Origin: Cuniculiplasma divulgatum | GTDB taxonomy: Archaea; Thermoplasmatota; Thermoplasmata; Thermoplasmatales; Thermoplasmataceae | DNA: 32,000 bases | NCBI RefSeq assembly: GCF_900083515.1 | Contig: NZ_LT671858.1 | Location: 900,001-932,000 of the forward strand | Reading direction: 5' to 3' | Shown: positions 15,102 to 32,000 of the stretch, in pieces | Position numbering within the stretch: the stretch's first letter is position 1 | How the letters are laid out: each line of letters begins with the position of its first letter | Program-made: the position numbers and the translations under genes | The notes under the pieces: model-generated | Told to the model about the DNA's origin: nothing | Seen by the model: only the letters and a program-made list of their open reading frames with translations | Database searches by the model: none

Positions 15102-15157
15102 AATGGTTAAAAATTTGTTCACTCCAGTAGAGCCTTTACCTTTTATAAAAGGGGAGG

Positions 15158-16228
15158 TTAGTTTAAAGTAATACCTTCCGAAAGGATTTCCTGGTAGGTG
15201 TTAATAAATTCAGCTGCGATCTTTTCCGAAACCAATCCCATATTGCCCACTCTTAAAATTTTTCCATTAAGTTCACCCATTCCATTTGCTACCTCAATAT
15301 TTCGTTTTAACAGTTCAGCTCTTAATTTTGTTGCTGGAATAGAGGGCTCAAAGGCTATTACAGTGTCTGAATAATTTAACTCGTTTCCGTATATTTTTGA
15401 ACCTGATTCCTTGAGTTTTCCTCTTAAAAAAGATGCAATTTTAGCATGCCTTTGATTTCTTGCATCTATGGTCTCACTTTCCAGTTCATTCAATGCATTA
15501 TGTAATGCATTAAATGCACCGGTAGAAGGTGTAAATGCGGTTTCACCCTTATTAAGAAAATCAATTCCTATTTTAGCATCCAAATATTTTGGAATGTCAT
15601 TTGATTGAATTAAAGATTCATTTGCCTCTTTGCCTATAAAAACAATTCCAATACCTGGAACAGAGGCAATTCCTTTCTGACTACAGGAAGCCATTACATC
15701 TATACCCCATTCATTGATCTTCACCGGTAAACCTGCAAAACTTGAAACCCCATCGACTAAAACTTGCAATCCATTTTCCTTACTTTCTCTGACAACATTC
15801 TTAAGGTTCTTTATAGCAGTCCCATTTCCTGTTTCGTTATGAATTATGAAAATTGAACCTATTTCTCGATGAGATGAAACATAATCTGTTATTTCTCCGA
15901 CCTCTAAATGCTCACTAATAGATTTATTAATTCTATGAACCTTAAGTCCCCTCCTCTGGGAACTTTCAATCAGTCTATTTCCGAATTCTCCAAAGGTAAC
16001 TGCCAGTACATTATCCTTTGGCTTTGTAAATGAATAAATCATTGATTCAACTGCAAGTGTTCCTGACCCAGTGATCATTAGTGAATGTGTAGAATCTGAA
16101 AATTTATTAAGCAATTTTTCTGAATTTCTCACAATGTTCTTAAAGGACTCAGATCTGTGGTTGGTTACAAGCCTGGATGCTTCCATTGTCTTTTCTGACA
16201 CCTCTACAGGTCCTGGTATTAACATCAT
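15158..16228 (-). CDS. Class V pyridoxal-phosphate aminotransferase (phosphoserine / serine-pyruvate aminotransferase type)
   Basis: N-terminus LIPGPVEVSEKTMEA and PLP-lysine region SCSQKGIASVPGIG. 4-nt overlap with the upstream dehydrogenase gene. Confidence 0.85.
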   Translation of the reverse strand: MMLIPGPVEVSEKTMEASRLVTNHRSESFKNIVRNSEKLLNKFSDSTHSLMITGSGTLAVESMIYSFTKPKDNVLAVTFGEFGNRLIESSQRRGLKVHRINKSISEHLEVGEITDYVSSHREIGSIFIIHNETGNGTAIKNLKNVVRESKENGLQVLVDGVSSFAGLPVKINEWGIDVMASCSQKGIASVPGIGIVFIGKEANESLIQSNDIPKYLDAKIGIDFLNKGETAFTPSTGAFNALHNALNELESETIDARNQRHAKIASFLRGKLKESGSKIYGNELNYSDTVIAFEPSIPATKLRAELLKRNIEVANGMGELNGKILRVGNMGLVSEKIAAEFINTYQEILSEGITLN

Positions 16229-17223
16229 ATTCCCATCTCACTAATTTTGGCAAAAAGGTTATTCAATGTATATTCGGCCACACGTTTCTGTGCCTCAACT
16301 GTTTGTGCTCCTATGTGTGGTGTCACAATTACATTTGGTTTTGATATTAGAGTCTTTTCCCATTCTTCTGTAGGAGGTTCGTTCCAAAGCACATCTGTAG
16401 CATATCCCTTAATTCGACCACTCTCAAGATAATTTAGCAATACTCTTCCATCAATCACTTCAGATCTGCTTGTATTAATCAGGAAAGATCCACTCTTTAC
16501 CATTTTCATCTGTTCTTCGCCTATTATATTGGACGAGGAGTCGCTGAGAGTGACGAGGATGAAAATAAAATCTGAGTTTGAAAGAAGTTCGTTCATTGAA
16601 ACAAAGTGACCTCCCACTTCCTTAATGGCTTCTTGGTTTTCAAAAATATCGTAGGCTAAAATTTCCATACCAATAGATTTTAGTATTTTTGCAGTGCTCA
16701 GTCCTATCCTTCCAAAGCCTATTATGCCTGAAGTCTTTCCACTGAGTTCAAAGCCTGTATCCTTTATCCAAATTCCATTTTTAGAATTTATATCCAGAGG
16801 GATAAGATTTCTCGCAAGACTCACAGCCAAGGCAACATTTAATTCAGCCACAGAATGAGTAGAGGAACCTGCTGCAGTTATTACCTGAATGTTTCTGGAT
16901 TTAGCATACTTCGTATCTATGTTATCAACACCGATTCCAGCTCTGGCTATAATTTTAAGGTTTACAGCTTTCTCAAGAATATCCTGAGTTAATTTTGTTC
17001 TACTCCTTAAAATGACAATATCATATTTCTCAATTGAGTCCTTTAATTTCATTGAGGTAATTTCAGGTTCGTAATTAACATCAAATTCTCTTTTATTAAG
17101 TTCATCGAGCATCAAACTGTCCACCTTATCGCATATAAGAACTTTTTTTTTCTTGGTTATTCCTTTCATTGCTGAGGAATTGATGCTATGGTATATATGC
17201 TCTATGTGACCAAAAGAGTTCAT
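16225..17223 (-). CDS. serA: D-isomer-specific 2-hydroxyacid dehydrogenase, D-3-phosphoglycerate dehydrogenase type
   Basis: NAD fold GIIGFGRIGLSTAKIL and catalytic region VTPHIGAQT. The true start is probably Met19 (17169, MKGITKKKKVLICD). Operon partner of the aminotransferase. Confidence 0.85.
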   Translation of the reverse strand: MNSFGHIEHIYHSINSSAMKGITKKKKVLICDKVDSLMLDELNKREFDVNYEPEITSMKLKDSIEKYDIVILRSRTKLTQDILEKAVNLKIIARAGIGVDNIDTKYAKSRNIQVITAAGSSTHSVAELNVALAVSLARNLIPLDINSKNGIWIKDTGFELSGKTSGIIGFGRIGLSTAKILKSIGMEILAYDIFENQEAIKEVGGHFVSMNELLSNSDFIFILVTLSDSSSNIIGEEQMKMVKSGSFLINTSRSEVIDGRVLLNYLESGRIKGYATDVLWNEPPTEEWEKTLISKPNVIVTPHIGAQTVEAQKRVAEYTLNNLFAKISEMGI

Positions 17224-17252
17224 TATGACGAAAAATACCCTCTTTTTAAAAT

Positions 17253-18461
17253 TTACCTGTTAATGTTCATTACAATGCCAGAACAGACCTTAGGAAAGAA
17301 ATAGGTTGATTTTTGAGGTAGAAAGCCATTTTTCACTATGAGATTAAATAATTTTTCCTTATTCCAGGGAGGCATGACAAAAACGATTGAGCTCTCACCA
17401 GAATCTATCATCCTTTTACACTCTTTTATGTCGTGGGTATAATATATCATGGCATCTAATTCTTCATCTGATAAACCGAGTATTTCTTTTAGGACTACGT
17501 TTTGAATAAGATGTATAGCAGAAATTGCAGATATACCTCTCTTCTTTATCTTCTCCTGATCAATAATCATATTATCCTCTTGTGATAAAATAAGAACATT
17601 TTCATCCTTTGGTCCTTCTGAATCTGCTTTTACAGAATTACATACTGACCGTAAGTTGTTTAGTTTCTCATTATCAATTCTGCACTTCAAAGCCCTGTGA
17701 ATACCATTAATTAGGAGTGAATCTGAATCTATATTAGTTGTATACGCCATTATTGAAGACCAGAATACCTCATCATTTTTATTTGATGATTGAGCCATTT
17801 GCATTGTTGCAGCCAATCTGTGATGGCCATCTGCAACAATTGCCACATCAGTTTTTAGTATCTCCGAAATTGTATGAGAATCATTTAGTGGTATCTTAAA
17901 GATTTTGTATTTTACACTATCTGTATCAGTAAATTCTAACCATGGTTGTAGTTTACTGGAGAGGAGAATCAATTTCCGGTCAAACTGTTTGTTATTTACC
18001 ACAAGGAAAATCGGTTCGAGCTGTGCATTCGTATCCTTCAAAACTTTGACCCTATCGGAAACTTTACCAGGAAAGGTTTTTTCATGAGGCTGTAACAAAC
18101 CATCTTCTGGATATATATCTACAAGTGAAATAACTCCAAACCTTTCTCTAATCCTACCGTTAATCCAGGATTGTTGGTTAATTAAAATCATACCTGCTTC
18201 CTCCTTTTTTTTAAGTACGCCTGAATCAATCCATTTATCTATTAACATAGTACCCTGTGATTCTTTTTCTGGTAGAGTCAAGTGAGTTATGTTAAAGGGA
18301 AATGACTTCAATTCAGATTCTAATGATTTTGAGATTGAATCAAATGGTGGAGATATGGATTTTTCTACATTATCACAAAAATAATAAGGTTCAAATTCCC
18401 GAAGTCTGACCATTCTAACACTCCCTTTCAATAGAAGGATAGATTTCTTTAATGATTGCAC
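17253..18461 (-). CDS. DUF1015-family protein (ParB/Srx-like fold, function unknown)
   Basis: Signature IVADGHHRLAA, about 400 aa. The likely true start is MVRLREFEPYYF (18413). First gene of the serA-aminotransferase cluster. Confidence 0.75.
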   Translation of the reverse strand: MQSLKKSILLLKGSVRMVRLREFEPYYFCDNVEKSISPPFDSISKSLESELKSFPFNITHLTLPEKESQGTMLIDKWIDSGVLKKKEEAGMILINQQSWINGRIRERFGVISLVDIYPEDGLLQPHEKTFPGKVSDRVKVLKDTNAQLEPIFLVVNNKQFDRKLILLSSKLQPWLEFTDTDSVKYKIFKIPLNDSHTISEILKTDVAIVADGHHRLAATMQMAQSSNKNDEVFWSSIMAYTTNIDSDSLLINGIHRALKCRIDNEKLNNLRSVCNSVKADSEGPKDENVLILSQEDNMIIDQEKIKKRGISAISAIHLIQNVVLKEILGLSDEELDAMIYYTHDIKECKRMIDSGESSIVFVMPPWNKEKLFNLIVKNGFLPQKSTYFFPKVCSGIVMNINR

Positions 18462-18858
18462 TCTGAATATTTTGTTTCTTCATAACCTGAATCACATCCT
18501 CATACCAACTACCCACCATATAAATTTTGATTCGCAAATGGCAACATATTGAATACTAGTATTACTGCAAATTTAATATTCATACTTCAATTCTAAAACT
18601 TTAATGAAACATAGTCTCAGTCTTGTCAGAACGGGGTTATCTATTTTAATGGAAAGAATTAATTCGTCGAAATCTGTTCATAGATCGTTCTGCCATATTT
18701 CCATTGAACTAAATTATAAAAATGTAAATTAAGGTAACTGTCCATAAGGCGTTTCTCGCTCTATTTATAAAAAAATGAGGGGAAATAAGTTTATATGAAG
18801 TAACAACCTGACAGCCAATGACTTTAATACAATCAAGAAATGACATTATCTGTCAGTT

Positions 18859-19971
18859 ATGGATACAAAGAGAGTTTTTACCATAGGCGAAAAAATTAAA
18901 TCAACTCTTGAAAAAGAGGGACTGTATCAGCAGATAGAATATCCTGAACCATCACCGGATGATGGAAATATTTCTTATGGTTTAAGTTACCCTATAAAAG
19001 CCTTTGAGAAATTTCTGGGATATTATGATTCAGCTGAAAAGATTGCGTTTAATCCATCTATTTCATTCAACACAGATTTTTCCTTTTGTCTTTCTGCGTG
19101 TAAATATACAAAGACTGCAAAAACAGACTCTGTTGTTCTCGATGGTGTTACAAATGACAGCTATACCCTTAAGGCTACATCTGCGCTGCAGAGCTTCAAG
19201 AAAAAATTTAAGATAGAAGGAAGTTTTCAATTTTATCTAAAGAGATACAGGAAATATACTGAAGCAAAAGGAATGAGTGAATCCTCTGCGGTTGCCTCGG
19301 CAGCTTCAAGATCCCTGATTAACAATCTGTTTAACGAAAAGAAACCTGTCATGGATCATCTCACTTCAAGATTTGCACGACTTGTATCAGGATCAGGTAC
19401 AAGGGCAAGCATAGAAGGCCTGTCCATCTGGTTATCATATCCCGGTTTGGATAGTGACCAGTCCTTTGCAGTTAAGATCAGGGATAATCCAAAGGAAATT
19501 TATTATGGGATTTTTCCAAAAAGGAATTCCATAAAAACCGATCAGGCCCATAATAATGTAAAAAATTCAATCTTCTATGATACCTGGATATATGATAAGA
19601 TGGATGCTGTCAAGAATGCTACTGAGAATAATTTTAACACTTCGTTTCTCATAGAACGTGGTCAGAAGGATTCTTTGAACCTTCATTCAGTGCTCATTTC
19701 ATCTGGTATGTTCGCTCAAACCGGGGAAAGTATAGAATTGCTGAGAAAAATAATGAAGTTTCAATCTGATAGTGAAGGGATATATTTTAACGCCGATACT
19801 GGTCCTTCCATTATGATTTCCTCTCTTGATAGAAATTTAATTCTTGAATGCAAATCATATGTTAATGAGAATTTCCTTGAAGGTGGAATGAAGTACGATG
19901 ATCATGTTAAAAAAATGAACGACTTTAAAAAAGAGAGTGAGGCATATTTTAATTCAATAAGTAGAGAATAA
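18859..19971 (+). CDS. GHMP-superfamily protein of the diphosphomevalonate decarboxylase family (mevalonate 3-kinase or mevalonate-3,5-bisphosphate decarboxylase candidate)
   Basis: MDD-like N-terminal motif YPIKAFEKFLGYYDSAEKIAFNPSISF (compare IKYWGK...NxSIS). Degenerate GHMP motif II KGMSESSAVASAAS. Confidence 0.7.
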   Translation: MDTKRVFTIGEKIKSTLEKEGLYQQIEYPEPSPDDGNISYGLSYPIKAFEKFLGYYDSAEKIAFNPSISFNTDFSFCLSACKYTKTAKTDSVVLDGVTNDSYTLKATSALQSFKKKFKIEGSFQFYLKRYRKYTEAKGMSESSAVASAASRSLINNLFNEKKPVMDHLTSRFARLVSGSGTRASIEGLSIWLSYPGLDSDQSFAVKIRDNPKEIYYGIFPKRNSIKTDQAHNNVKNSIFYDTWIYDKMDAVKNATENNFNTSFLIERGQKDSLNLHSVLISSGMFAQTGESIELLRKIMKFQSDSEGIYFNADTGPSIMISSLDRNLILECKSYVNENFLEGGMKYDDHVKKMNDFKKESEAYFNSISRE

Positions 19972-20433
19972 TGTTAAATTAACGCATAAACTCGAAGCTC
20001 GCTTTAGCATTTAGAAAATGAGAGTATTAAACTATTACACATAGATAAGGCCGTAGATTTCATTTTTTTAGCCATAAGAAGTTCTAAAAAATGCATATTA
20101 GTTTACTACTCATTTGAAGAGTTATATAAGAATTAAATTTAAATAGCGATTGCTTTACTTTAAATAACAAATGGTTCAGCATGATTAAAATACCTGGAAT
20201 CGAACTTAATGAGTCCTTTTTTGGTGCAGGTATCAGGTTTCTTTGTGGGAGGTAAAATCAAAAATCGAAATAAATATCTGTGTTATATAGTTACTTGTGA
20301 AAAACACTATGTGTTAACAGTAAAGATTCGTAAAATATAATATTAGTCATATGGGTTTAAATTTATAATTATAATATATTTCTAAAGAGTTTTCTGGTAG
20401 GTGGTTTGATCACCATTTTTTTCACCTTGGAAA

Positions 20434-21162
20434 CTAGTACAATCCATAATCGTTATCAGATTTAGCATAATTTTGTGGATTGGTAAGAAGTTCATGACCA
20501 CTGTAGAAGAATAGAACTAAAAGAATGATAGCACTAAGAATAGAAAACAAAGAGTATAGATTAATGGAGTGGGCCTTTATTAGGTTTATAGCGGATTCAG
20601 CAGAAGACAAAGTTGTAATTGAGGATAAGGTAGCAAAGACAGTTTCCATTTCACCAATAAATCCGATTAATGTGAACGCAAGTGATGTTAAAAGGGCAGC
20701 GATAAGTAATTTAAACTTATTATTCTTAAAAAATTGGATGTTCAATAAGTAGTAGGAAATATAATATAAAAGCGAGGGGATAACCGTAATAATTACTGTA
20801 TTTACTATAAGGGAGGAAATAACACCGTCAGGTATGTTTCCAGATGGATATTCCGTTACTATTGAAAAAGCAACCGATACAACATAGATAGTAGCGCCTA
20901 AAATTGCTATTATTGCAAATAGTATATAAATGCTAATTCCGTTAATTAAATGTCTTCTAAAATCATGTTTAAGTGACTTTCTTGATACTATTACAATTAC
21001 AAGACCAGCGAAGCCTATTAAAATTGAAATATATGAAAGGAAACTGATTTCAGTTAGAACACTTATTATGCTTATCAAAAAAGTAAGGCTGAATAGTATG
21101 TACGCATATCCAACGTTTCTAACTCCCTCATTTCTCAAATTATTTGATTGTTCTGGATTCAC
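20434..21162 (-). CDS. Hypothetical polytopic membrane protein
   Basis: 242-aa ORF with about 6 long hydrophobic segments. No recognisable motif. Confidence 0.55.
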   Translation of the reverse strand: MNPEQSNNLRNEGVRNVGYAYILFSLTFLISIISVLTEISFLSYISILIGFAGLVIVIVSRKSLKHDFRRHLINGISIYILFAIIAILGATIYVVSVAFSIVTEYPSGNIPDGVISSLIVNTVIITVIPSLLYYISYYLLNIQFFKNNKFKLLIAALLTSLAFTLIGFIGEMETVFATLSSITTLSSAESAINLIKAHSINLYSLFSILSAIILLVLFFYSGHELLTNPQNYAKSDNDYGLY

Positions 21163-21336
21163 TTATTATTAATGTATTATATATAATAAATATTTTGGTG
21201 TTGAATATCCTTAGTATGAAAACTGTTACAAATAGATGATTGAATCGTCTATTATATTTTTCCTGCAGTCATTAAATATTATAATACTTGGAGATAAAGA
21301 TAAGTATAAGTTATTACATTTAAGACTGGGAAAAAA

Positions 21337-21987
21337 GTGATAAGACCAAATCCCTATAGAAATGAAGGTGACCCAGACATCAACTTTATTATGGCCGGTG
21401 CTGTTGAATTTAATCCTTCCCCGATTCTTCTTAAGAAAATCAGAATGAACAAAATAGAGGGCTTCTTTTTTGGATTATTTTTTACTTTCCTGAGTATCTT
21501 TATTTCCATACTTACTTCCAATATATATTATCTATTTCTTGCCTTAATCCTATTTGGATTGAGTTTTTCTTCAGTTGGGCTGGTTTATATACATTCAGAA
21601 TTGATGTTCAGTCAGAAATATGTTATTAATGCCTATGGACTTGGGCTGATACGTGGGGAAAAAATATATTATTATCATTCATTTAACCAGTTACAATCCT
21701 CAATTATCGTGCACACTGTGAAGGGGAATCTTGATTATTATTCTGTTTTCTTTTTGCCCATTGATTTGAAATTAAAATTACCAGGGAATTTAGATCAAAT
21801 AAGTCTTGAAATGCTAAAGAATCTATTACATGAAGCACGAAAAAACAGTGATAATAGATTTACTTTGAAAACATTAAAGCGTTACTACACTTTTCCTTAT
21901 CTAGATTTGAATTTGGCCATAGAAGTTAGGAAGTATTATATCAGGATGTATGAAGGCTGGTCAGTGCCTTACAAATATTTTACCTGA
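21337..21987 (+). CDS. Hypothetical membrane-anchored protein (TM hairpin + soluble C-terminal domain)
   Basis: Two adjacent TM helices (FFFGLFFTFLSIFISILT / YYLFLALILFGLSFSSVGLVYI) are followed by about 130 soluble residues. GTG start; the alternative is Met19. Confidence 0.5.
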   Translation: MIRPNPYRNEGDPDINFIMAGAVEFNPSPILLKKIRMNKIEGFFFGLFFTFLSIFISILTSNIYYLFLALILFGLSFSSVGLVYIHSELMFSQKYVINAYGLGLIRGEKIYYYHSFNQLQSSIIVHTVKGNLDYYSVFFLPIDLKLKLPGNLDQISLEMLKNLLHEARKNSDNRFTLKTLKRYYTFPYLDLNLAIEVRKYYIRMYEGWSVPYKYFT

Positions 21988-22002
21988 AATTGTATAACAA
22001 AT

Positions 22003-22419
22003 TCAGATATCTTCAACGGTCTTAGCAGTTATATCCAGTTCAACAGCAGCCTTAGAAATCCTCTGGCTATCTGTAATTAGAATGAGCTTATTTTCCTTTG
22101 CAGCCCACAAATAACTTACTTCCTTAAAATTAAGTTTTTTGTAAATTGCAATGTTTAGCATTGTTTTAAAATCATCCCAGAGAACAGGGACGATTTCTAC
22201 ACTTTTGAGTATATCAATAAGGTCATCACCAAGAGATGTAATTCTTGCTTTTTCATCTTCCGCTTCTTCCATTGAGCACCTGTTAGAAATCAGATCTCCA
22301 ATCTCACTGTAACATGACTCTATGATACAGGAATTTTCTATAAAATCAATTGCACTATCAGGCTTTATTAAAAAAATTTTAATAAGTGATGCCCCATCAA
22401 TTAGGTATTTCTTTTCCAT
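22003..22419 (-). CDS. vapC: PIN-domain toxin (VapC-like)
   Basis: N-terminal beta1 acidic residue (KYLIDGASL) and C-terminal LILITDSQRISKAA motif. 138 aa. Begins 2 nt after the stop of a ribbon-helix-helix gene. Confidence 0.65.
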   Translation of the reverse strand: MEKKYLIDGASLIKIFLIKPDSAIDFIENSCIIESCYSEIGDLISNRCSMEEAEDEKARITSLGDDLIDILKSVEIVPVLWDDFKTMLNIAIYKKLNFKEVSYLWAAKENKLILITDSQRISKAAVELDITAKTVEDI

Positions 22420-22421
22420 TC

Positions 22422-22646
22422 CTATTTATCCCTCTTTGCGTTTTTATTTACCATAAGGAAATCACTGGGTGACTCATTCCTGAACCTCTCTGACAGATCC
22501 CTTATTTTTTTGACCAGAATTTCTCTTTGGATACTTGATACCTCCTCTTCCAGGGATTTTCTTATAACTTCTGACAGGTTAACATTGAGCCTTTTTAATT
22601 CCTCATATAAGCTATCATCGATCCTAACACTTATAATTTGAGTCAT
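22422..22646 (-). CDS. vapB: Ribbon-helix-helix (CopG/VapB-like) antitoxin
   Basis: The N-terminus IISVRIDDSLYEELKRL is a typical RHH strand-helix. 74 aa, immediately upstream of the PIN gene. Confidence 0.65.
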   Translation of the reverse strand: MTQIISVRIDDSLYEELKRLNVNLSEVIRKSLEEEVSSIQREILVKKIRDLSERFRNESPSDFLMVNKNAKRDK

Positions 22647-22656
22647 CGTTTTTTGT

Positions 22657-22670
22657 ATACGTAATACGTA
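22657..22670. promoter_or_regulatory. Tandem ATACGTA ATACGTA (two TACGTA palindromes) just upstream of vapB; candidate autoregulatory operator
   Basis: Exact 7-mer duplication 11-24 nt upstream of the vapB start codon. RHH antitoxins typically bind repeated or palindromic sites in their own promoter. Confidence 0.25.
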
Positions 22671-22798
22671 CTTTAACGTTGTTAAACGTCATTTCTTTGT
22701 TAATATTTTTAACAGATAACTAAAAACTGTTTCTAAGGCCTGATAATTTATGAAGAATCTAGTTAGTAATGGACTGGATATATGTTAGTTGTATGTGT

Positions 22799-24094
22799 CT
22801 ATATAATTGCTATTATTCCAAAGATCGGGACGAAAATTAGACTTGACCAGTAGGCCATTTCTCTTATACCAGATGAAGAATATTCTCTCATGATGTTTCT
22901 GTTTCTTGCTATCATCCCCATTAGTACACCCGGACCTATAAGCACAAAGACAAATATCACGAGAAGATAAAGAACGCTACTAATTAGATAGGATTTTGGT
23001 AGAATCAGAGCTATAATTACAGCAGGCAGACTTTCCATAATATATATCAAGGATGATTTTTCCCTCCCTATTCCCAGTGCTTCCATGAACCCCCATGCAC
23101 TGCCCATAGATATGACGACAAGAACTAAAAAAGCGGCTCCTATGAGACCAATACCAAATCAATAGGGTGAATATACGCCGGCAATGGCAGTTAAGCCACC
23201 AGCCAGCTGGGATATTGACGCAAAATTCATATTTGGGCCAATACCACTCATCACCATTTCCACTACTACCATTAACATTTCTGATACTACTGCTCCAAGA
23301 AGCGTTTCAAGTCTCATTGATTTCATAGCAGTTTTTGTAAATTTGTCTCTCACTATATTGCTATTGATTTCCGTGCTATTATTGATCTGAAACTTCTTCC
23401 TGGTGTGAATAACCTTTTCTGCTGTTGCTGATGCCTGAAAAAAGAGCATAAATGGCATTATGACTGCGTCAACATTTACAGCTAGCATAAATAGAAATGT
23501 TGGAGATGGGACAAAATACAGTGGACTATATGGCTCTATTCCTCGAACTGTAAGTGCAGCAATGAAGGCAACAATTAGCATACCTGAAATTACGAGAAGA
23601 ATGGATTCAGTTAGTCCATACTTTCTGTGTATGACCACTGCTATATGAATCACATAAAAAACTGGCAGCGAAAACAGTATGGGGATATTGAATAGAGATA
23701 ATCCTACTGCAATTCCAAGATATTCAATAACATACGTAACAATGTCGGTTAGGACCATTGGAACTGTTGCAATCAAGGTAAGTGAGTGCGAATAATTATT
23801 CCTGATTACCTCCCCTAACCCCATTTCAGTAGCAACTCCAATTCTGCCGGAACTTTCCTGGACTAAATAAAGTGGGATTACCAGAACAATAGTAAACCAT
23901 ATTAATCCGTACTTGAATAATGCACCCGTTTCAGCAGCTCCAAGCGTGCTGCTGGCATCCATGTCGGCTATCATAACCAGCCATGCTGGCCCAAAAAATT
24001 TAAAAATATTTCTTACTCTTATCATGTGACTCATTTTACCAGCCAGGGATAAGAGAAATCTGGATAATCCCAGAGAAATATTGATCAAGCACAA
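22799..24094 (-). pseudogene. Nramp/MntH-family divalent metal transporter interrupted by one in-frame TGA
   Basis: The ORF 23159-24094 (FGPAWLVMIADMDASSTLGAAETGALFKYGLIW, Nramp TM1 region) ends ...AGVYSPY-TGA. The same frame continues FGIGLIGAAFLVLVVIS into ORF 22799-23107 (MGSAWGFMEALGIG..., Nramp MEGF-like region). The joined length of about 431 codons matches full-length Nramp. The likely true start is MSHMIRV (24034). Confidence 0.85.
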
Positions 24095-24197
24095 GTATGA
24101 TTGTCATTTTATCACGTAAGGACTCCCTTACAGTATAGGGCAATACTTAAGTTTTCCTTAATTAAAAAATTTTTCATATGCAGAGGAAAGAATTTGA

Positions 24198-25217
24198 TTA
24201 CTCTGACATAATCTCTGAATGTTCGGTGAAATTTTGTTTTTCGCTTTGAAGAACATATAATATGAATTCCATAATGATACCTATGAGCACTAATATGGCC
24301 AGAAAAGTAAAAAAATATGACAAATCATCAAAGAATTGAACATGATATATTTCTGACATTGAATAGTAACCGATAGAATCAACCCCTAAAGGAAATAATG
24401 CTCCCCATGATGAAATTTTATATTTTTTATTAAACAATCCATTTTTAATTTTTACAATAAATACAATGAACATGAACAGAGCTATGAAGATTGAAGCTAT
24501 TATATCAACGGTTGCCATATAATGAAAAATATAACCTATTGTCATTTGGATAATATCATATACGGGAGTTCCCAATATTGAATATCCAAGTAGTGAAAGA
24601 ATTCCAGAATAAATCATGTAATAACCATTTATATCTTGAATATGCACTGGTCTTTTATGGTTGTATATCAACGAATAAGTAATGACTAAAATAGTACCTA
24701 TTTGTGATATTATTACCAGAAGAAACTCTAAACTTACGAAAATGAATGGAATCTGATTCTGTGTAACACCGATCAAAATGGAAAAACTCAAGAAAGAAAT
24801 AAGAGGCAAAAACAGCAAATAGTTTTCCTTTTCTTTATTATGAAAATTAAGTGTAAGCAGATATAATGAAATAAACAATATTGTAACTCCAAGCAAGACA
24901 ATAACAATGACCAAGGGGTATATGGATATGTGAGATTCATATAGTCGAGTGAACAGTACTGAGGTACCAGCTATGAATGTAAATGCCTGCATTACAGTTT
25001 TAGAGCTATATTTAAATATGTTACCCTTTAAGAGAAATAATTTCAATAAAAAGGATCCTATTAAACCAATATATATGGATATAGATAAAAACATTAATAA
25101 ATAAGAAAGAGCCATCATTCCGAGATGAAAAAGAGCATCTGATAGTATACCTGTTCCCATTACCGAAGCAAAGGAAGAATTTGGTAATGTTGAAAGATTT
25201 TTTTTAAATCCTTTCAT
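24198..25217 (-). CDS. TDT-family (TehA/Mae1/Ssu1-like) anion transporter
   Basis: About 10 TMS in 339 aa. The N-terminal FASVMGTGILS motif is characteristic of the tellurite-resistance/dicarboxylate transporter family. Confidence 0.6.
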   Translation of the reverse strand: MKGFKKNLSTLPNSSFASVMGTGILSDALFHLGMMALSYLLMFLSISIYIGLIGSFLLKLFLLKGNIFKYSSKTVMQAFTFIAGTSVLFTRLYESHISIYPLVIVIVLLGVTILFISLYLLTLNFHNKEKENYLLFLPLISFLSFSILIGVTQNQIPFIFVSLEFLLVIISQIGTILVITYSLIYNHKRPVHIQDINGYYMIYSGILSLLGYSILGTPVYDIIQMTIGYIFHYMATVDIIASIFIALFMFIVFIVKIKNGLFNKKYKISSWGALFPLGVDSIGYYSMSEIYHVQFFDDLSYFFTFLAILVLIGIIMEFILYVLQSEKQNFTEHSEIMSE

Positions 25218-25340
25218 TATGTTAAGATATCACAGAAGTTGTTATAAGACTTCTTTATTAGGTACTAAAAATATGAAGGCATGTTGTATATAAAAATTTT
25301 AATAGCTATTGAAACAACAATTTATAAATATGAATCTAAT

Positions 25341-25352
25341 AATCTTAAGATT
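25341..25352. promoter_or_regulatory. Perfect 12-bp palindrome AATCTTAAGATT nested in inverted repeat TGAATCT-N9-AGATTCA, downstream of a TTTATAAATA box
   Basis: Read directly from the sequence. The TATA-like box is at 25321-25330 and the palindrome at 25341-25352, 49-60 nt upstream of the first paralog start (25401). Confidence 0.3.
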
Positions 25353-25400
25353 CAGAATTATATCATAGTATAACTAAGTTGAATTTGCAGGATTGATAAT

Positions 25401-26339
25401 TTGCGTATAGAGAAGTTAAACTGGAAAAACTGGAAAAAGTGTACCATTGCAATAAAGGTAGATAGTGGTATTTTTAAACTTCTTGGGAGTAATATGGGTA
25501 AGATTCAGGCCTTTGTCTTTAATGAAGGAATGAAATCATTCGTGCAGCTTTATTTTGATGATAAAACGATAAGTTCAGGGGGAATCAGCAGAATTCTATC
25601 CAGAAAGGACGTTGTAAGATCAGATGGTTATATTTCCATATCAGAGGAACTGCAATCTTCAGATGCTGCAAAACTTATTTTTGATCTTACTGAGATGCCC
25701 TCTGTTCTAATAGAACAAACATATGTTATAGGTAATGAGATTTATTTTATCTTCCGCTTTCACAATTCATTTCTCTCTAAAATAAGCAGTTTGCTTACCG
25801 ATTATATCGCAGAAGATCTGAAGGTTAGGATAGTCGAGCTAGTGAATGCAGACAGTATAATAGACGCAGTAAATAATATTAAAAAAAATACAGAGGTATT
25901 GGTGGTTCAGATATCCACTCTCATAACCAAAGGGAGGAGTACGCTTGAATTTGTTAGGAGTAACTATCCGGATATTCTATCAATGCCTGAAACGAGAAGC
26001 CGTGACGACAATGGCTATAGAGTGATAATATTCTCCAAAAAAGAGCTCAACATGAAAGGTATGAATCCTATTTCGTTAAAAGAAGGACTGTACGAGGGGA
26101 GGCTGATTGACCCATATCTAGTTAAAAAGAGAAAGCTAACAAATGATTCGAGAATACCAAGATTTGGAGCGTTTTATTATATTAATGAAAACAGGTTAGT
26201 TGATACTACATTTATACCAAAAGAAATGGCACAAAACTATATTAGAACATACTTTGAGGCCATTGGTGACCTGGATACTTACAAAGCTATAATAGAGGTT
26301 TTCTCGGAGGCAAATGACGAAGTTTGGAAGCAGATTTAA
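25401..26339 (+). CDS. Uncharacterised protein, paralog 1 of a tandem triplet (312 aa)
   Basis: A TTG start is required because the N-terminus aligns with paralog 3 before the first ATG (KCTIAIKVDSGIFKLL vs RCLISIRGEDEIFEIM). Shared family motifs are PSV..., F(R/K)(F/Y)H, V(V/L)Q(I/T)S, RIPR and a C-terminal (V/I)W. Confidence 0.75.
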   Translation: MRIEKLNWKNWKKCTIAIKVDSGIFKLLGSNMGKIQAFVFNEGMKSFVQLYFDDKTISSGGISRILSRKDVVRSDGYISISEELQSSDAAKLIFDLTEMPSVLIEQTYVIGNEIYFIFRFHNSFLSKISSLLTDYIAEDLKVRIVELVNADSIIDAVNNIKKNTEVLVVQISTLITKGRSTLEFVRSNYPDILSMPETRSRDDNGYRVIIFSKKELNMKGMNPISLKEGLYEGRLIDPYLVKKRKLTNDSRIPRFGAFYYINENRLVDTTFIPKEMAQNYIRTYFEAIGDLDTYKAIIEVFSEANDEVWKQI

Positions 26340-26379
26340 GGAGATTTATAGTTGAACTTCAGTGAAAGGAGGTTTTGGT

Positions 26380-27318
26380 ATGGACTTCAGTCTTATGGAT
26401 GGAAAAGTTGAGTGTGGCGTTAGCTTAAGCATTAAGTTAAAGGGTGAATTATTCAATCTCATGAAAAATGCTGATGAAAGGATAGAGACATTTCTTTATG
26501 AGGATCACGAAGAACTTTTCATCAATCTTTATTTTAGCAAGTTTTCAAACAATTTGGGAAAATATAACTTCATCCTATCTCATAGAAACTTAAAGGAATC
26601 TGAATCATTTTTTACAATATCTGCAAAAATAGAGAATCCAACTCATTTTGATTTCGTGAAGAAAATTCTAAATTTTCCATCTGTAATTGTAGCCGGAACT
26701 TTCATGAAGCGGGATACTCTTTTCATACTGTACAGGTATCACGAAAATTATAAAGAAGAGATGAACTCATTACTGAATCTTTATATTGTGGAGCATGAAG
26801 GTATTGCAATTTCAGAAATAAGGAAATCCTATTCATTTAGAGACAGGATGATGAGAATTAATAAATTGTTCCCACTTGCAGTTTTGCAAACCTCAAGTAA
26901 ATACATTTCCAATAAACTGATCTCCTATATTTACAAGAATTCACCAGGATTTGTGGCAGAATTAGAAGGGAGAGGACTTACATCAGATGGAGTCAGGGCC
27001 TTAATATATTCTAATAGGAATTTGAATTTCAAAGGATTGATCGAGATTTCCAGAAATCAAAATATTTACGAGGCAAGGCATTATGAAAGTCTTTTTGTGG
27101 AAAGAAGAAGACTTGCCAATATGGAACGAATCCCAAGGATCGCCATTCTGTTTAGTGTTAAGGATGATAGAGCCTATATAACTTCGTTCCTGCCAGTGGA
27201 GGAAATGGATAACTATATGAGGATCTATTCAAAAACAGTAAATAAGGAATCAAGTTATGAACCTAACATTGAAGTGCTTTCTAAAATGAGGGAGGATATA
27301 TGGAACTGGCTGGAATAA
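26380..27318 (+). CDS. Uncharacterised protein, paralog 2 of the tandem triplet (312 aa from ATG 26380; ORF open from GTG 26362)
   Basis: GGAGG lies 8 nt upstream of ATG 26380. This start gives exactly the same length as paralogs 1 and 3. C-terminus RIPRIAILFSVKDDRAYITSFLPVEEMDNYMRIYSK... aligns with paralog 3 RIPRLATMLELKNGRLFNTTIVPSENSDEYIGIYSK... Confidence 0.75.
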   Translation: MDFSLMDGKVECGVSLSIKLKGELFNLMKNADERIETFLYEDHEELFINLYFSKFSNNLGKYNFILSHRNLKESESFFTISAKIENPTHFDFVKKILNFPSVIVAGTFMKRDTLFILYRYHENYKEEMNSLLNLYIVEHEGIAISEIRKSYSFRDRMMRINKLFPLAVLQTSSKYISNKLISYIYKNSPGFVAELEGRGLTSDGVRALIYSNRNLNFKGLIEISRNQNIYEARHYESLFVERRRLANMERIPRIAILFSVKDDRAYITSFLPVEEMDNYMRIYSKTVNKESSYEPNIEVLSKMREDIWNWLE

Positions 27319-27390
27319 TCGGGAGTAAATTTGGGGAATATTTCACTTATATTCTGTATGGCGAGATGTTTCATTTGTGGGTGAGATAGT

Positions 27391-28329
27391 ATGAACTTCA
27401 ACACAATTGATCATAAGATTGATCGCAGATGTTTAATCAGTATTCGTGGAGAAGATGAGATATTTGAAATAATGAAGGAAAATATGCAAAAATATAATGT
27501 TTTTCTATATAAAAATGAGGGTAAAATGTTCCTACAGGTTTACATTGAAAAGAAGTCTTTTGCTCCCAGATTTTTTTCAATGATCAAACTTATATCAACA
27601 TTCAGGGAAACTGAAAATTATTACAGCGTAATGGTGGATATTACAGAAAACAGTGGTGTTGGAATTATAAAAGAACTTCTTTCTATTAGATCAATTACAC
27701 TTGGTGAAACCTATCTTCTTGGAAATAGGATATATCTCACTTTCAAGTATCATCATGATTATTCAATTTCTCTTACAACAACACTTATAAAATGGATCGA
27801 TAGGAAAGAAAATATTCGGTTAGAAAACATCAGGCATTCCAGAACTTTTATTGAAGGGATGACTCTCCTGGTTAAATCCCTACCACTTACAGTAATACAG
27901 ACATCTACCATAATGCCTGAGGGTCATGGACCGCTCTATGAAATTGCCAGACAATATCCTGAAACAGTAACAGAAGTAGACGTCCGAAGTATGTCAATCA
28001 CATCGATAAAATGCCTATCCTATGCACAGCAGAAAATAGAAATTCCTGATATAAGTACAGTTTCAAATAGAGATTTTATTTATGAAACTATTGAACTGTC
28101 TGGTAGCCTTATGGATCGTGTTTTGAAACTAAACGAACTGAGGATACCAAGGCTGGCGACAATGCTTGAACTTAAGAATGGAAGACTGTTTAATACAACA
28201 ATTGTTCCTTCAGAAAATTCTGATGAATATATAGGTATTTACAGCAAATTTATGAAGAATGTATCACAGTATGATCCACGTATTGAAATATACAGCAATA
28301 TAAATGAAAAAGTGTGGTCGATGCTATAA
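27391..28329 (+). CDS. Uncharacterised protein, paralog 3 of the tandem triplet (312 aa)
   Basis: ATG is preceded by GGTGA (anti-SD complementary) at -8 nt. Colinear similarity to paralogs 1 and 2 along the full length. Confidence 0.75.
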   Translation: MNFNTIDHKIDRRCLISIRGEDEIFEIMKENMQKYNVFLYKNEGKMFLQVYIEKKSFAPRFFSMIKLISTFRETENYYSVMVDITENSGVGIIKELLSIRSITLGETYLLGNRIYLTFKYHHDYSISLTTTLIKWIDRKENIRLENIRHSRTFIEGMTLLVKSLPLTVIQTSTIMPEGHGPLYEIARQYPETVTEVDVRSMSITSIKCLSYAQQKIEIPDISTVSNRDFIYETIELSGSLMDRVLKLNELRIPRLATMLELKNGRLFNTTIVPSENSDEYIGIYSKFMKNVSQYDPRIEIYSNINEKVWSML

Positions 28330-28413
28330 CAACTATTGGTATGATTGCACTGTAAGTTCTTTATTTTATTTAATGGTAGGAAAATATATTATACTATTAT
28401 ATTGTGTTATTTT

Positions 28414-30195
28414 GTGAACAATTCATTATTTTATACTAACAACCTTGGGAGTCTTGAATTAAATTACGTAATAGATGAACTCAGAAGAAACTATGCACTT
28501 AAATACAGAGACCAGCCAGATATTAAACAGACTAACGCATGGAAGGGAAGCATTAAGGCATTAAAACAGTACATAAATCCAGGAACATGGGTATTTATGG
28601 AGTACGGTTTCCCCATAGGTTTGGAGAGGGTAGATTTTTTGATTGCCAGAAAGGGTCATGCATTTATTGTGGAATCCAAGGGATGGAATAACTACAGGAA
28701 AATTAATGAAATAGTCTCAATGGGAGATAATCAGGAAGTTGTCAATCCATGCTACCAGATGGAGAATTATGTTGCAAAGATGAGAAATTTTCACACTTCA
28801 TCCAGCTTGATTTCCTTTGATGGTTTCGTTTATATGTATAATACAAAGGATGGGAAAGAATGCAAAATTCTGTATAATGGCAGAGAGGTTGAAAGTGAAT
28901 TACAAATACTTCCTGTGGAAGTTTCCTCACAAGAAGAGGTGGATGCCATTGAGAACGGCACATTTAGAACAAGCAGAGAATTGATCGATTTTATTTCCGC
29001 AAATAGAGATCATATAATGGAAGATGTATCAAGAAAATTCCTGAATGCTGGATTTGGTCTTTCAGAGGAACAGGCAATAATAGTAGAAAAAATAATGAAT
29101 AGTATCAGGAAAGGAGAGAAAAAGAAGTATTTCATAAGCGGAGGAATGGGTTCGGGAAAAACACTTATGGCCATAAACCTTCTATTCATGGCATTAAGTG
29201 AAGGATATCAGGCACTTCTTGCTTATAGAAATAACAGGCTCATCAATACGTTAAGAAGGGTATTCGGTCCATCATATTCGTCATTGCTGTGCTTTTATTC
29301 CATGGGATTCAATGGACACTTTAAGGGTCTGGGCGAGGAAAACTTTGATCCTGAAAGACTTCAGCTTCAGAAACTACTTATATATGATGAGGCACAGCGT
29401 ATGACTATGGATGTAATTAGGAAGACTCTATCCTATGATAAAACTTCAGTTTATTTCTTTGACGAGAATCAAATTTTGATTGATGATGAATCTGGTGGAA
29501 AGGCTGTATTCAAATCTGAAGCTGAAAGATCAGGCACTGAGTTTGAATTCATATCCTTGAGCGGTTTTTTTAGGATGATAGACGGTGATAAATATGGTAG
29601 TTTTGTTGATGGTCTTTTCTCTAAAAGTAATTATTCTAATCCTGGTGAATATGACCTGAGACTGTTTGACAACATTAATAATATGATTGATGACCTGAAA
29701 CGTAAAGAGGAGAACGGGAATACAAGAATAGCCTTACTTGCATCATACACATTCAGTGATGGCAGGAAGGAAAAGAGGAGAGTTATTAATCCTGAAATAA
29801 AGTGGCTTATGGATCCAAAGACAGAGTACCCACAGTACTGGATGGGAATCCATGAAAACCCTTTCAAATACTGTGCTTCAATATATGGTTCCCAGGGATT
29901 TGAAACAGATTATGTTGGTCTGATATGGGGTGAGGACCTTGTGTGGAGAGGTAAATGGGTTGTGCAGCCAGAAAAAATTACCGATACAATAGGTGGGAGA
30001 TCATCATTAAAAAGTGTTTGCAGAAACAACCCTGACAGGGGAAGGGAGATGCTATTCAATAGATACAGGATTTTACTTACAAGAGGAATGAAAGGTACTT
30101 CTGTTTATTTTGAGGATAGGGAAACATATGAGCATGTAAGATCAATTTTGAGTCAGAGTGTTAACATTGTGTCATCCAGAGGGATTATAAAATAG
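28414..30195 (+). CDS. PD-(D/E)xK nuclease-like N-terminal domain fused to a DUF2075 / Schlafen-group-3-type P-loop helicase
   Basis: N-terminus TNAWKGSIKALKQYI ... ERVDFLIARKGHAFIVESKGW (D-x12-E-x-K). Walker A FISGGMGSGKTLMA, Walker B LLIYDEAQRM and C-terminal ILLTRGMKGTSVYF. The ORF is open from TTG 28345. I prefer GTG 28414 because an AAAATATATTATA box is centred about 27 nt upstream. TTG 28402 is also possible. Confidence 0.8.
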   Translation: MNNSLFYTNNLGSLELNYVIDELRRNYALKYRDQPDIKQTNAWKGSIKALKQYINPGTWVFMEYGFPIGLERVDFLIARKGHAFIVESKGWNNYRKINEIVSMGDNQEVVNPCYQMENYVAKMRNFHTSSSLISFDGFVYMYNTKDGKECKILYNGREVESELQILPVEVSSQEEVDAIENGTFRTSRELIDFISANRDHIMEDVSRKFLNAGFGLSEEQAIIVEKIMNSIRKGEKKKYFISGGMGSGKTLMAINLLFMALSEGYQALLAYRNNRLINTLRRVFGPSYSSLLCFYSMGFNGHFKGLGEENFDPERLQLQKLLIYDEAQRMTMDVIRKTLSYDKTSVYFFDENQILIDDESGGKAVFKSEAERSGTEFEFISLSGFFRMIDGDKYGSFVDGLFSKSNYSNPGEYDLRLFDNINNMIDDLKRKEENGNTRIALLASYTFSDGRKEKRRVINPEIKWLMDPKTEYPQYWMGIHENPFKYCASIYGSQGFETDYVGLIWGEDLVWRGKWVVQPEKITDTIGGRSSLKSVCRNNPDRGREMLFNRYRILLTRGMKGTSVYFEDRETYEHVRSILSQSVNIVSSRGIIK

Positions 30196-30521: not shown

Positions 30522-31046
30522 TTATTTTGGGAAGTATTCTCCTTTCTCAAGTATTACCTTTAATGGAACATTAACCGTACTTGACCCAATATTTACCTGT
30601 AGTATTCGCGTAGTCAGATTACTTAGAAAAGGTTTTATAATATCTTCATTTTTAAAGACTAAAACGTATTCGAACTCTACATTTAGACCTAGGTTTAACA
30701 GATTGTTCAATCCTAGTTTGCCTTCTTCTATCTTTTTCCCTAAAAAAAGATCAATGGTTGGTTGAAGTTTACCTTTGATTCTATTTATTAGTTGTTTCAA
30801 TTGATTATCCTTAAGAGAAGCGTTAACTCCTTTCATTTCGAATATAATGACTTTATTTTTCTTACTTCGATAAATTAGAGCTAGATCAGCATGTGGGGTA
30901 CTTTTCCCAAAACAGACCTCCTCCAGGTTCATAAGAGATACAAAGTTTTCTACCTTTTTAATTGTAACACTACAATTACAGTCCTTAAAATTAGTTGAAT
31001 AAGATCTTGCGTCATGATTTAATGTTCCACTCATAATTTCAATCAC
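30522..31046 (-). CDS. Small PD-(D/E)xK-like (Hjc/restriction-endonuclease-fold) hypothetical protein
   Basis: Motif HADLALIYRSKKNKVIIFEMKG (D-x15-E-x-K) in predicted strand context. 174 aa from GTG 31046, or 170 aa from ATG 31034. It lies 93 nt downstream of the ATPase gene on the same strand. Confidence 0.55.
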   Translation of the reverse strand: MIEIMSGTLNHDARSYSTNFKDCNCSVTIKKVENFVSLMNLEEVCFGKSTPHADLALIYRSKKNKVIIFEMKGVNASLKDNQLKQLINRIKGKLQPTIDLFLGKKIEEGKLGLNNLLNLGLNVEFEYVLVFKNEDIIKPFLSNLTTRILQVNIGSSTVNVPLKVILEKGEYFPK

Positions 31047-31139: not shown

Positions 31140-32000
31140 CTAGAGATTAATTTTCTTTACCCCCTTTATCCTATCAACAAAGTATGAATCAAATTCACAT
31201 TCCTGTAAAGATTTGGAAACCTGTTTGGCCAAGTCACTTATTTCAATCTTATCACTCCCTTTTCTTTCAACATTCATTACATTGTCAATTAAAGTCTGTA
31301 TCTTTTCTGGATTCGGTTTATACTTGTGGAGTAAATAAAAAACCTGACCTATGATGCTACTATGAGTCGAAAATACAATTCTTTTTCCCATTGAAGACAA
31401 TACAATCAGCGTTAGTGCCATTATAACTTGAGATGAAGGATGTAATTGAGATTCAGGTTCCTCTATTATTAGTAGTCCATTCTTCATAGACTTCGCCAGA
31501 AGGAGTATACCAGACACCTCACTAGCCATTGCTGAAGCGTATTTTAGATCGACCTTAACATTCATATTGTCCGTATAAAACAAACGTTTTGTTAGTTCAT
31601 CATATGATAAGTTACCTTGAAGAACTGTGAATGTATCAAATGGGAAATCTTTTTCGATGGAAACCATCTTCTCTGAAAAATCTATCCAATCAATAAAAGC
31701 CCTATATATGTACTCTGTAGAATCGTACAATAAATCATTATTTTCAAAGATGTTATAATTCTTAAAATAGCGATGAGAAATAATAAGAGGGGTTTTTCCA
31801 AAAGGTACAAAACGAACTTCACTAATGCTTGAAGAGAATTCTATTAAGGAATGCATATGAGCTAGGAAATAATCTACCATTGCCATAGAAATGCTCTTTG
31901 AGAAAGCTTTCGGAATCTCCCTAATCTCAAATAGACTGTATTTCGAAATTTTAACATTTCTAACTTGTGATACTATGCTTTTCGTCAATTGATTTAAGTT
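31140..32000 (-). CDS. ABC/AAA_21-AAA_15-type ATPase (OLD/Septu/Gabija-class ATPase fold), C-terminal part; N-terminus outside window
   Basis: Walker B/D-loop NGLLIIEEPESQLHPSSQ, signature-like ASEVSGILLLAKS and H-loop VFSTHSSIIG. The reading frame stays open to base 32000, so the Walker A region lies beyond the window. Confidence 0.8.
   Translation of the reverse strand, partial: NLNQLTKSIVSQVRNVKISKYSLFEIREIPKAFSKSISMAMVDYFLAHMHSLIEFSSSISEVRFVPFGKTPLIISHRYFKNYNIFENNDLLYDSTEYIYRAFIDWIDFSEKMVSIEKDFPFDTFTVLQGNLSYDELTKRLFYTDNMNVKVDLKYASAMASEVSGILLLAKSMKNGLLIIEEPESQLHPSSQVIMALTLIVLSSMGKRIVFSTHSSIIGQVFYLLHKYKPNPEKIQTLIDNVMNVERKGSDKIEISDLAKQVSKSLQECEFDSYFVDRIKGVKKINL

Follow-up and report, generated by a model that had tools for sequence, protein, structure and literature searches.

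Two single-protein defense systems resemble one part of the locus described here. Nhi of Staphylococcus epidermidis (SERP2475) joins an N-terminal nuclease to a DUF2075 domain and provides anti-phage defense as a single protein (Bari et al., bioRxiv 10.1101/776245); the Nhi-like proteins have the same organization, likewise defend as single proteins, and share no sequence identity with Nhi (Millman et al., bioRxiv 10.1101/2022.05.11.491447). The structural relatives named for Nhi are Dda, Upf1, and DNA2 (bioRxiv 10.1101/776245; 10.1101/2022.05.11.491447). We examined a stretch of 32,000 nt from the archaeon Cuniculiplasma divulgatum S5 (Thermoplasmatales; contig NZ_LT671858.1, positions 900,001 to 932,000 of the forward strand; hereafter the window, whose own numbering is used throughout), in which a nuclease-helicase of this kind is preceded by three genes for 312-amino acid (aa) paralogs belonging to the Ta1207 family (Pfam PF19020; PDB 5M86). 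A first-pass annotation, made from the letters alone, had taken the four genes for a candidate novel defense system, with a hetero-oligomer of the paralogs licensing the nuclease-helicase. Our comparative analysis favors a different reading, to which we assign a probability of about 0.72: the locus consists of two independent functional units that became neighbors in the Cuniculiplasma lineage.

The first unit (25401-28329) would be an ancient three-gene operon of Thermoplasmatota-restricted Ta1207 paralogs, here called A, B, and C, whose cytosolic products of ~312 aa most likely assemble together as a hetero-oligomer with a binding or scaffolding role and no catalysis. The second (28414-30195) would be a stand-alone, separately transcribed nuclease-helicase of Nhi/Nhi-like architecture, in which ATP-driven 5'-3' translocation on DNA most likely brings the PD-(D/E)xK nuclease domain of the same protein to nucleic acid that is foreign or aberrant, no partner being needed.

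Gene content of the locus

The four co-directional open reading frames (ORFs) are laid out as the first-pass annotation had described, with spacers of 40, 72, and 84 nt (the last is 72 nt if a TTG start is used for the helicase gene):

25401..26339, + strand: Ta1207-family paralog 1 (trio position A), 312 aa, TTG start
26380..27318, + strand: Ta1207-family paralog 2 (position B), 312 aa from ATG
27391..28329, + strand: Ta1207-family paralog 3 (position C), 312 aa
28414..30195, + strand: nuclease-helicase, 593 aa from GTG (RefSeq call), with a NERD-like PD-(D/E)xK domain and a DUF2075/Schlafen-type superfamily 1B (SF1B) helicase

Paralog 1 is 100% identical to a C. divulgatum protein, and its TTG start is backed by the family alignment and by a confident model of the N-terminus. 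An alternative in-frame GTG at 26362 would extend paralog 2 to 318 aa, and an alternative TTG at 28402 (the ENA call) would extend the nuclease-helicase to 597 aa. Because the ratio of nonsynonymous to synonymous divergence (dN/dS) is 0.06-0.13 in all four genes when S5, strain PM4, and a second Cuniculiplasma species are compared, all four are functional genes under purifying selection. The G-plasma metagenome assembly has paralog 3 annotated as two fragments, EQB69974.1 and EQB69975.1 (219 aa and 72 aa), which reflects a frameshift, an assembly error, or a decayed copy. With regard to proteomic expression, the portion of the PMC7285479 supplement covered by our survey lists 0 of the 4 UniProt accessions.

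Distribution of the trio and of the helicase

Within Cuniculiplasma, the same four genes occupy the same site in PM4 (locus L001), in several metagenome assemblies, and in the second species (L008), whose helicase is 80% identical to that of S5. The site is flanked upstream by an Nramp gene and a CcdA-like/PIN-like pair, and downstream by glycosyltransferase and carotenoid genes. The pairing of trio and helicase is seen in this genus alone, at this one syntenic site.

Outside this cluster, we collected eight distinct genomic contexts of Ta1207 genes through 12 individual look-ups, and in none of the eight (0/8) does a helicase lie beside them. They include a fourth Ta1207 paralog of C. divulgatum itself, located beside amino-acid permeases (L009), and genes found beside M24 and M50 peptidases (L011), beside pyrimidine-synthesis genes (L097), and near ftsZ and transketolase (L098). 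Ta1207 genes of L006 are likewise solitary or otherwise arrayed among housekeeping genes, and in L007 (8001-15960) four of them, spread over 8 kb and both strands, are interleaved with an aromatic ammonia-lyase and an M20 peptidase; the family thus also forms arrays other than the A-B-C trio.

The survey anchored on the helicase gave the same picture. Its orthologs are solitary in Oxyplasma meridianum (52% identity), in L016, where the gene stands beside a ribosomal-protein operon (47%), and in Thermoplasma acidophilum (39%). Profile hidden Markov model (HMM) searches of the surroundings detected a Ta1207 gene in 0 of these 3 genomic contexts and in 0 of 78 metagenomic contexts outside Cuniculiplasma, the metagenomic loci carrying relatives at 30-92% identity, 39 of them with at least 1 kb of upstream sequence and 27 with at least 3 kb. 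No recurrent partner emerged among 132 neighboring proteins, where no family was seen more than 4-6 times; these neighbors are mixed metabolic genes, with some AAA_21, PIN, TnpB, methyltransferase, and MutS_V members.

These distributions bear directly on the proposal that the four genes are one novel defense or surveillance system, with the paralog hetero-oligomer as the sensor that licenses the nuclease-helicase. Several observations support that proposal and weigh against two independent neighbors. The genes are co-directional with short spacers, and their adjacency is kept in S5, PM4, G-plasma-type metagenome-assembled genomes, and the second Cuniculiplasma species, that is, in three lineages near synonymous saturation (synonymous divergence, dS, of 1.3 to >2.5). 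When S5 is compared with PM4, divergence is elevated to one level across all of 25127-30117 (81.8% nucleotide identity), as if the block had been inherited or exchanged as a unit. The architecture of the helicase is of a defense type, and the segment immediately downstream contributes two S5-specific features, an ATPase fragment and a nuclease-like gene. Transcription may also run through from paralog 3 into the helicase gene, physical interaction among the paralogs is a prediction, and the sequence of the helicase is as compatible with repair as with defense against viruses. The context samples are also small (8 for Ta1207, 3 genomic ones for the helicase), and many of the metagenomic contigs are short.

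Against the four-gene proposal, however, co-occurrence outside the genus fails in either direction (0/8 Ta1207 and 0/81 helicase contexts), so that the predicted linkage of Ta1207 homologs to DUF2075 or nuclease genes elsewhere was not borne out. The trio is older than the pairing and stands in core-like synteny; the helicase gene has its own conserved TATA-like box and lacks a Shine-Dalgarno (SD) motif; proteins of the same domain organization work alone; and the paralogs have no PADLOC match. The locus also does not behave as an accessory island varying between close strains, since the block holds its position across S5, PM4, further C. divulgatum-type assemblies, and the second species. We consider a single four-gene system improbable, and tenable solely as a Cuniculiplasma-specific recruitment. 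In its explicit form, such a recruitment would make the Ta1207-A/B/C hetero-oligomer the sensor or regulator of the adjacent Nhi-like helicase within a lineage-specific four-gene defense system; this coupling survives as a slender prospect, to which we give still less credence, because the genes have stayed adjacent within the genus and the block has one common level of divergence. If true, it would supply a first function for the Ta1207 fold. The comparative evidence speaks against a new four-gene defense system, which would have been of consequence.

An old, position-specific trio

Loci L013 and L014 carry three tandem Ta1207 genes without the helicase. Their trio adjoins DUF1015, 2-Hacid_dh, and Aminotran_5 genes, the equivalents of which lie at 15158-18461 in the window (~57% identical), and is followed downstream by aldo-keto reductase, epimerase, and glycosyltransferase genes. 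The same layout recurs in L005 as A, a decayed B, and C, the remnant ORF of B still scoring E 1e-5 against the family HMM. In a neighbor-joining tree of the array genes, paralog 3 and the third genes of the L013 and L005 arrays formed a position C clade with 100% bootstrap support, paralog 2 grouped with the middle gene of the L013 trio in a position B clade (96%), and paralog 1 grouped with the first genes of L013 and L005 in a position A clade (54%). These position-specific clades indicate that the triplication and the A-B-C order predate the Cuniculiplasma, L013, and L005 lineages, and a position-matched trio has been kept across family-level divergence at ~30% sequence identity.

A natural tandem fusion of two Ta1207 units, 654 aa in length, also exists in another Thermoplasmatota lineage (cluster P0137; 22 members from independent assemblies, e.g., MCL5667927.1), and its C-terminal half matches the family HMM in register (E 1e-8). 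Given the A-B-C order conserved at ~30% identity, the operon-internal SD motifs described below, and this two-unit fusion, the three paralogs are probably distinct subunits of one hetero-oligomeric complex. The idea that the paralogs act together, already voiced in the first-pass annotation, is to that extent supported by the trio and the fusion. The trio operon, conserved in at least 3 Thermoplasmatales lineages, and the fusion thereby predict a hetero-oligomer that offers an experimental handle on a lineage-specific family.

Directly upstream of the trio, on the same strand, a protein of ~667 aa with a 4Fe-4S cluster domain (Fer4_10/Fer4_7) is encoded in L005 (1829-3829) and in L013 (4876-6879). 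It is possibly a conserved partner of the Ta1207 trio in both non-Cuniculiplasma lineages, in each of which the downstream side holds the aldo-keto reductase, the epimerase, and two glycosyltransferases.

We also considered the trio as a mobile element and rejected this: it has no plasmid match and no viral structural relative, the window has no tRNA, and the flanks are syntenic. The neighborhood of the trio is syntenic and vertically inherited rather than a mobile island.

Within the trio, a 28-nt near-tandem duplicate (81% match) at 26338-26391 spans the stop codon of paralog 1 and the start of paralog 2, such that the SD-plus-start-codon region of paralog 2 occurs twice, first as a copy, AAGGAGatttatagTTGAACTTCAGTGA, and then as the genuine one, AAGGAGgttttggtATGGACTTCAGTCT. 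PM4 retains the duplicate in part, and L008 to a lesser degree.

Family and fold of the paralogs

The three proteins are 23-26% identical to one another over their full length, and cross-matches among them reach E 1e-37 to 1e-45, far beyond chance, so their paralogy, as proposed from the letters alone, is real. They had been described as falling outside any known domain, which proved wrong. All three match the Ta1207 family PF19020, at 143.1, 112.6, and 99.5 bits for paralogs 1, 2, and 3 against a cutoff of 26.3 (E 1.2e-41, 2.3e-32, and 2.2e-28), with matches that cover profile positions 1-275 of 277. When 1.84 billion representative proteins were searched exhaustively by profile, 183 representative members were recovered, nearly all of 295-335 aa, and every named one comes from Thermoplasmatales/Thermoplasmatota; a word-indexed homolog search with a 117-sequence profile recovered close relatives alone. 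The alignment of the three paralogs gave no match in a genome collection that apparently does not include C. divulgatum, as the species itself was not retrieved. The alignment of these 117 sequences has no invariant column, which argues against a conserved catalytic site and suggests a binding or scaffold role rather than catalysis.

The evidence on fold comes from paralog 1, for which an AlphaFold2 model built on the 117-sequence alignment reached a predicted local distance difference test (pLDDT) score of 93 and a predicted template modeling (TM) score of 0.90. In Foldseek searches this model matched chain A of PDB 5M86 (5m86_A), the Ta1207 protein of T. acidophilum, with TM-scores of 0.78/0.76 and E 1.3e-14, the runner-up reaching a TM-score of 0.17; by sequence, the family profile matches the same entry at E 1e-18. 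The paralogs are thus members of a known family with a solved structure. We found no match to PADLOC profiles, even at E up to 1, no NCBIfam family, no viral structural relative in the structure search, and no paper mentioning Ta1207 or PF19020 in the literature search.

The model is composed of repeated beta-alpha-beta-beta-alpha-beta units of the ferredoxin/ACT-like type. Below 5M86, the weak, partial fold matches are mostly ACT-type regulatory domains, those listed being aspartate kinase, CASTOR1/2, 2nyi, ATP-PRT, and the IlvA regulatory domain, along with designed ferredoxin folds. Since the repeat unit is ACT-like and the neighbors of Ta1207 genes are frequently genes of peptide and amino-acid metabolism, one could guess that the complex senses amino acids or other small molecules.

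The nuclease-helicase

The first-pass annotation was right that the fourth gene fuses a PD-(D/E)xK motif to a DUF2075/Schlafen-type helicase. The protein matches PF09848 (SLFN-g3_helicase/DUF2075) at E 1.7e-57 (195.7 bits), and the Pfam NERD profile weakly, at 18.5 bits, below the cutoff of 22.1. Its motifs were assessed in an alignment of 35 full-length homologs, 33-85% identical, from Thermoplasmatales, Sulfolobales, Nitrososphaerota, and bacteria:

28633..28680, + strand: PD-(D/E)xK nuclease core, D74 ... E87-S-K89 (RVDFLIA...FIVESKGW), with D74, E87, K89, and W91 invariant
29140..29163, + strand: Walker A, G243-M-G-S-G-K249-T, with G243, G246, S247, G248, and K249 invariant
29386..29397, + strand: Walker B/motif II, DEAQ 325-328, with D325, E326, and Q328 invariant

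The AlphaFold2 model (pLDDT 89.7) has SLFN11 as its first Foldseek match, and the other top matches, RecD2, Dna2 (third), Upf1, and Dda, likewise identify an SF1B helicase. In PADLOC, the protein matches PDC-S41 (2.1e-21), Nhi (2.1e-13), and AbiO (3.5e-13), the latter two through the helicase core alone. Plasmids of bacteria and archaea, and a few phages, carry full-length homologs that are 22-27% identical. From its architecture and patchy distribution, we infer a role in defense. PADLOC found no complete multi-gene system, as had been anticipated; the claim of a novel defense system was not supported, for the helicase has the architecture of the already named single-protein Nhi/Nhi-like systems and also matches PDC-S41.

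A different division of labor would take both units out of defense: the trio as a regulatory complex of ACT-like repeats sensing a small molecule such as an amino acid, and the helicase as a Dna2-like repair or replication enzyme outside defense. In its favor, ACT-type regulatory domains dominate the partial fold matches below 5M86; the frequent neighbors of Ta1207 genes are peptidases (M1, M20, M24, M50), amino-acid permeases, an aromatic ammonia-lyase, an amidase, and an aminotransferase; the best fold matches of the helicase include Dna2 and RecD2, and MutS_V genes adjoin some of its orthologs. However, the ACT matches have TM-scores of at most 0.2 over the whole protein, so that the repeat unit alone is shared, and no ligand-binding motif was identified in the paralogs; peptide-catabolism genes are abundant in Thermoplasmatales, so the neighbor pattern may be background; and patchy, context-shifting helicase orthologs with plasmid and phage homologs are more easily reconciled with an accessory role than with core repair. 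We regard this combination as unlikely, albeit the least unlikely of the alternatives weighed here.

Repeated ferredoxin-like folds in three paralogous subunits beside a nuclease-helicase could also recall a degenerate or novel CRISPR-related module, in which RAMP/Cascade-like RNA-binding subunits (ferredoxin/RRM folds) accompany a Cas3-like nuclease-helicase, and the helicase does give a very weak PADLOC match to type IV DinG (E 0.0036). Yet Ta1207 genes also stand alone in housekeeping contexts, and the helicase is of the SF1B type whereas Cas3 is of the SF2 type. The paralogs have no Cas or PADLOC match at E up to 1, no Cas structure is among the top 50 fold matches listed, and the window has no repeat array and no Rfam match. 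This candidate is effectively refuted, and its probability is negligible.

Transcription and translation signals

Under the reading of two independent units, the trio would be expressed as an operon and the helicase from a promoter of its own. The following elements bear on this:

25321..25330, + strand: candidate TATA box of the trio operon, TTTATAAATA, a putative promoter element
26368..26372, + strand: GGAGG, SD-like motif 7 nt ahead of the ATG of paralog 2; conserved in S5, PM4, and L008
27380..27384, + strand: SD-like GGTGA before paralog 3; GGTGAGA invariant in three lineages
28381..28393, + strand: TATA-like box AAAATATATTATA, centered ~27 nt upstream of the helicase GTG; candidate promoter of the helicase gene

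Conserved SD motifs are typical of operon-internal archaeal genes, and those of paralogs 2 and 3, which had been noted in S5 and are conserved in the two other Cuniculiplasma lineages, point to coupled expression of the trio. Upstream of paralog 1, the block ATTTATAA is conserved in three lineages. The spacer between paralog 3 and the helicase gene contains no SD motif; its best-conserved element is the AAAATATATTATA block, which is nearly invariant in S5, PM4, and L008 and more conserved than the flanking coding DNA. A/T-rich boxes occur at a similar distance from the start in the solitary helicase orthologs of L015, L018, L020, and L022, and further upstream in L016. The AAAATATATTATA block is placed as an archaeal TATA box would be for a leaderless mRNA. 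Because of this box at about -27, the missing SD motif, and the similar geometry at solitary orthologs, we infer that the helicase gene forms its own transcription unit.

Genomic surroundings and strain divergence

The surroundings had been described as an island with a toxin-antitoxin pair, a decayed transporter, and an ATPase-nuclease pair, a picture that holds in part. At 22003-22646 (- strand), a CcdA/RHH-like antitoxin (E 9e-7) does lie beside a 138-aa partner, but the PIN match of the partner (E 0.011) is below the Pfam cutoff. The distant L005 lineage has the same pair, 35-37% identical, ahead of its trio (885-1558), which indicates that this toxin-antitoxin-like pair is itself syntenic rather than a recently acquired island gene. 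The Nramp transporter gene (22799-24094, - strand) is indeed split in S5, into ORFs of 311 aa and 102 aa, and is a probable frameshift pseudogene; the gene is intact in PM4 (411 aa) and in L008.

Between the Nramp gene and the trio, S5 has a specific insertion (24175-25126) that is missing from PM4 and L008, and the product of its gene (24198-25217, - strand) belongs to the SLAC1/TehA-like anion-channel family (PF03595, E 5.8e-16). Downstream, the segment 30118-32000 is specific to S5, with no homology in the PM4 locus L001 beyond 30117, and its two ORFs (30522-31046 and 31140-31988) are both on the - strand. Of the proposed ATPase-nuclease pair, the nuclease side amounts to weak VRR_NUC/HSDR_N-type matches (E ~0.1) of a 174-aa protein, and the ATPase side to a C-terminal half: the 282-aa ORF matches the C-terminal part of AAA_15/AAA_21 (OLD, GajA, AriA, or PD-T4-4-like) ATPases, and has no Walker A, and the last 12 nt of the window include an in-frame stop. 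Either a split ATPase gene or one that runs on past the window in a different frame may account for this.

S5 and PM4 share 90.3% nucleotide identity over 14559-24174 and 81.8% over 25127-30117, against a genome-wide average nucleotide identity (ANI) of 98.8% (PMC5155288). In the four genes dS is 0.7-1.2, whereas the genes for the aminotransferase and the dehydrogenase have 0.05-0.09; dN/dS is near 0.1. The region 14559-30117, with its mosaic pattern, resembles an old divergent haplotype that entered by recombination. Diversifying selection, which 81-85% aa identity at 98.8% ANI might suggest, was rejected, as a dN/dS of 0.08-0.13 with a dS of 0.7-1.2 points to such a haplotype instead.

Comparison with known systems

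For the trio, the closest described protein is Ta1207 of T. acidophilum. Family membership (99-143 bits by HMM, and E 1e-18 for profile against PDB), the whole-chain fold of paralog 1, and a length class of ~300-335 aa are shared, whereas sequence identity to the paralogs of the window is ~10%. The 5M86 structure also differs in representing one protein, with 10 identical chains in the entry, against three position-specific paralogs in an operon; Ta1207 in that structure is reportedly a homo-oligomeric ring. Tandem ACT-domain regulators such as CASTOR1 and the regulatory domains of aspartate kinase have in common with the window paralogs the repeated beta-alpha-beta-beta-alpha-beta unit. CASTOR1 comprises four ACT domains in ~330 aa, a size similar to that of the paralogs. 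The resemblance is confined to the repeat unit, with a global TM-score of at most 0.2 to the model of paralog 1, no sequence similarity, and no ligand site identified.

For the helicase, the best PADLOC match is the single-gene candidate PDC-S41 (73.9 bits), itself a predicted candidate. It has a similar overall length, and the match covers the nuclease domain and runs into the first part of the helicase (residues 42-304 of a 616-aa ORF query starting at 28345, aligned to profile positions 21-282 of 657), but the score is moderate and the aligned coverage partial. Literature searches on PDC-S41 and on the combination of DUF2075 and NERD returned no papers.

The nearest named systems are Nhi and the Nhi-like proteins. 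Like these, the window protein is one polypeptide that combines an N-terminal PD-(D/E)xK-type nuclease, with an intact triad, and a DUF2075 SF1B helicase; Dda, Upf1, and Dna2 are structural relatives of both it and Nhi; and the Nhi systems act alone, as would a helicase whose orthologs are solitary in 3 genomes and have no recurrent partner. It differs from Nhi in that the PADLOC Nhi model aligns to residues 230-467 alone (profile positions 174-386 of 470), in its NERD-like N-terminal domain, and in its archaeal host, and its antiviral role would follow by analogy.

With the Schlafen group-3 helicase SLFN11 (PDB 7ZEL) and with Dna2, the protein shares PF09848 membership and the combination of a nuclease and an SF1B helicase in one chain, whereas the whole-chain TM-score is ~0.35, the biological context is another, and both the type and the position of the nuclease differ from those of SLFN. 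The helicase thus adds archaeal members, from Thermoplasmatales, Sulfolobales, and Nitrososphaerota, to the Nhi-like/DUF2075 nuclease-helicase group, which links prokaryotic defense with the eukaryotic Schlafen proteins.

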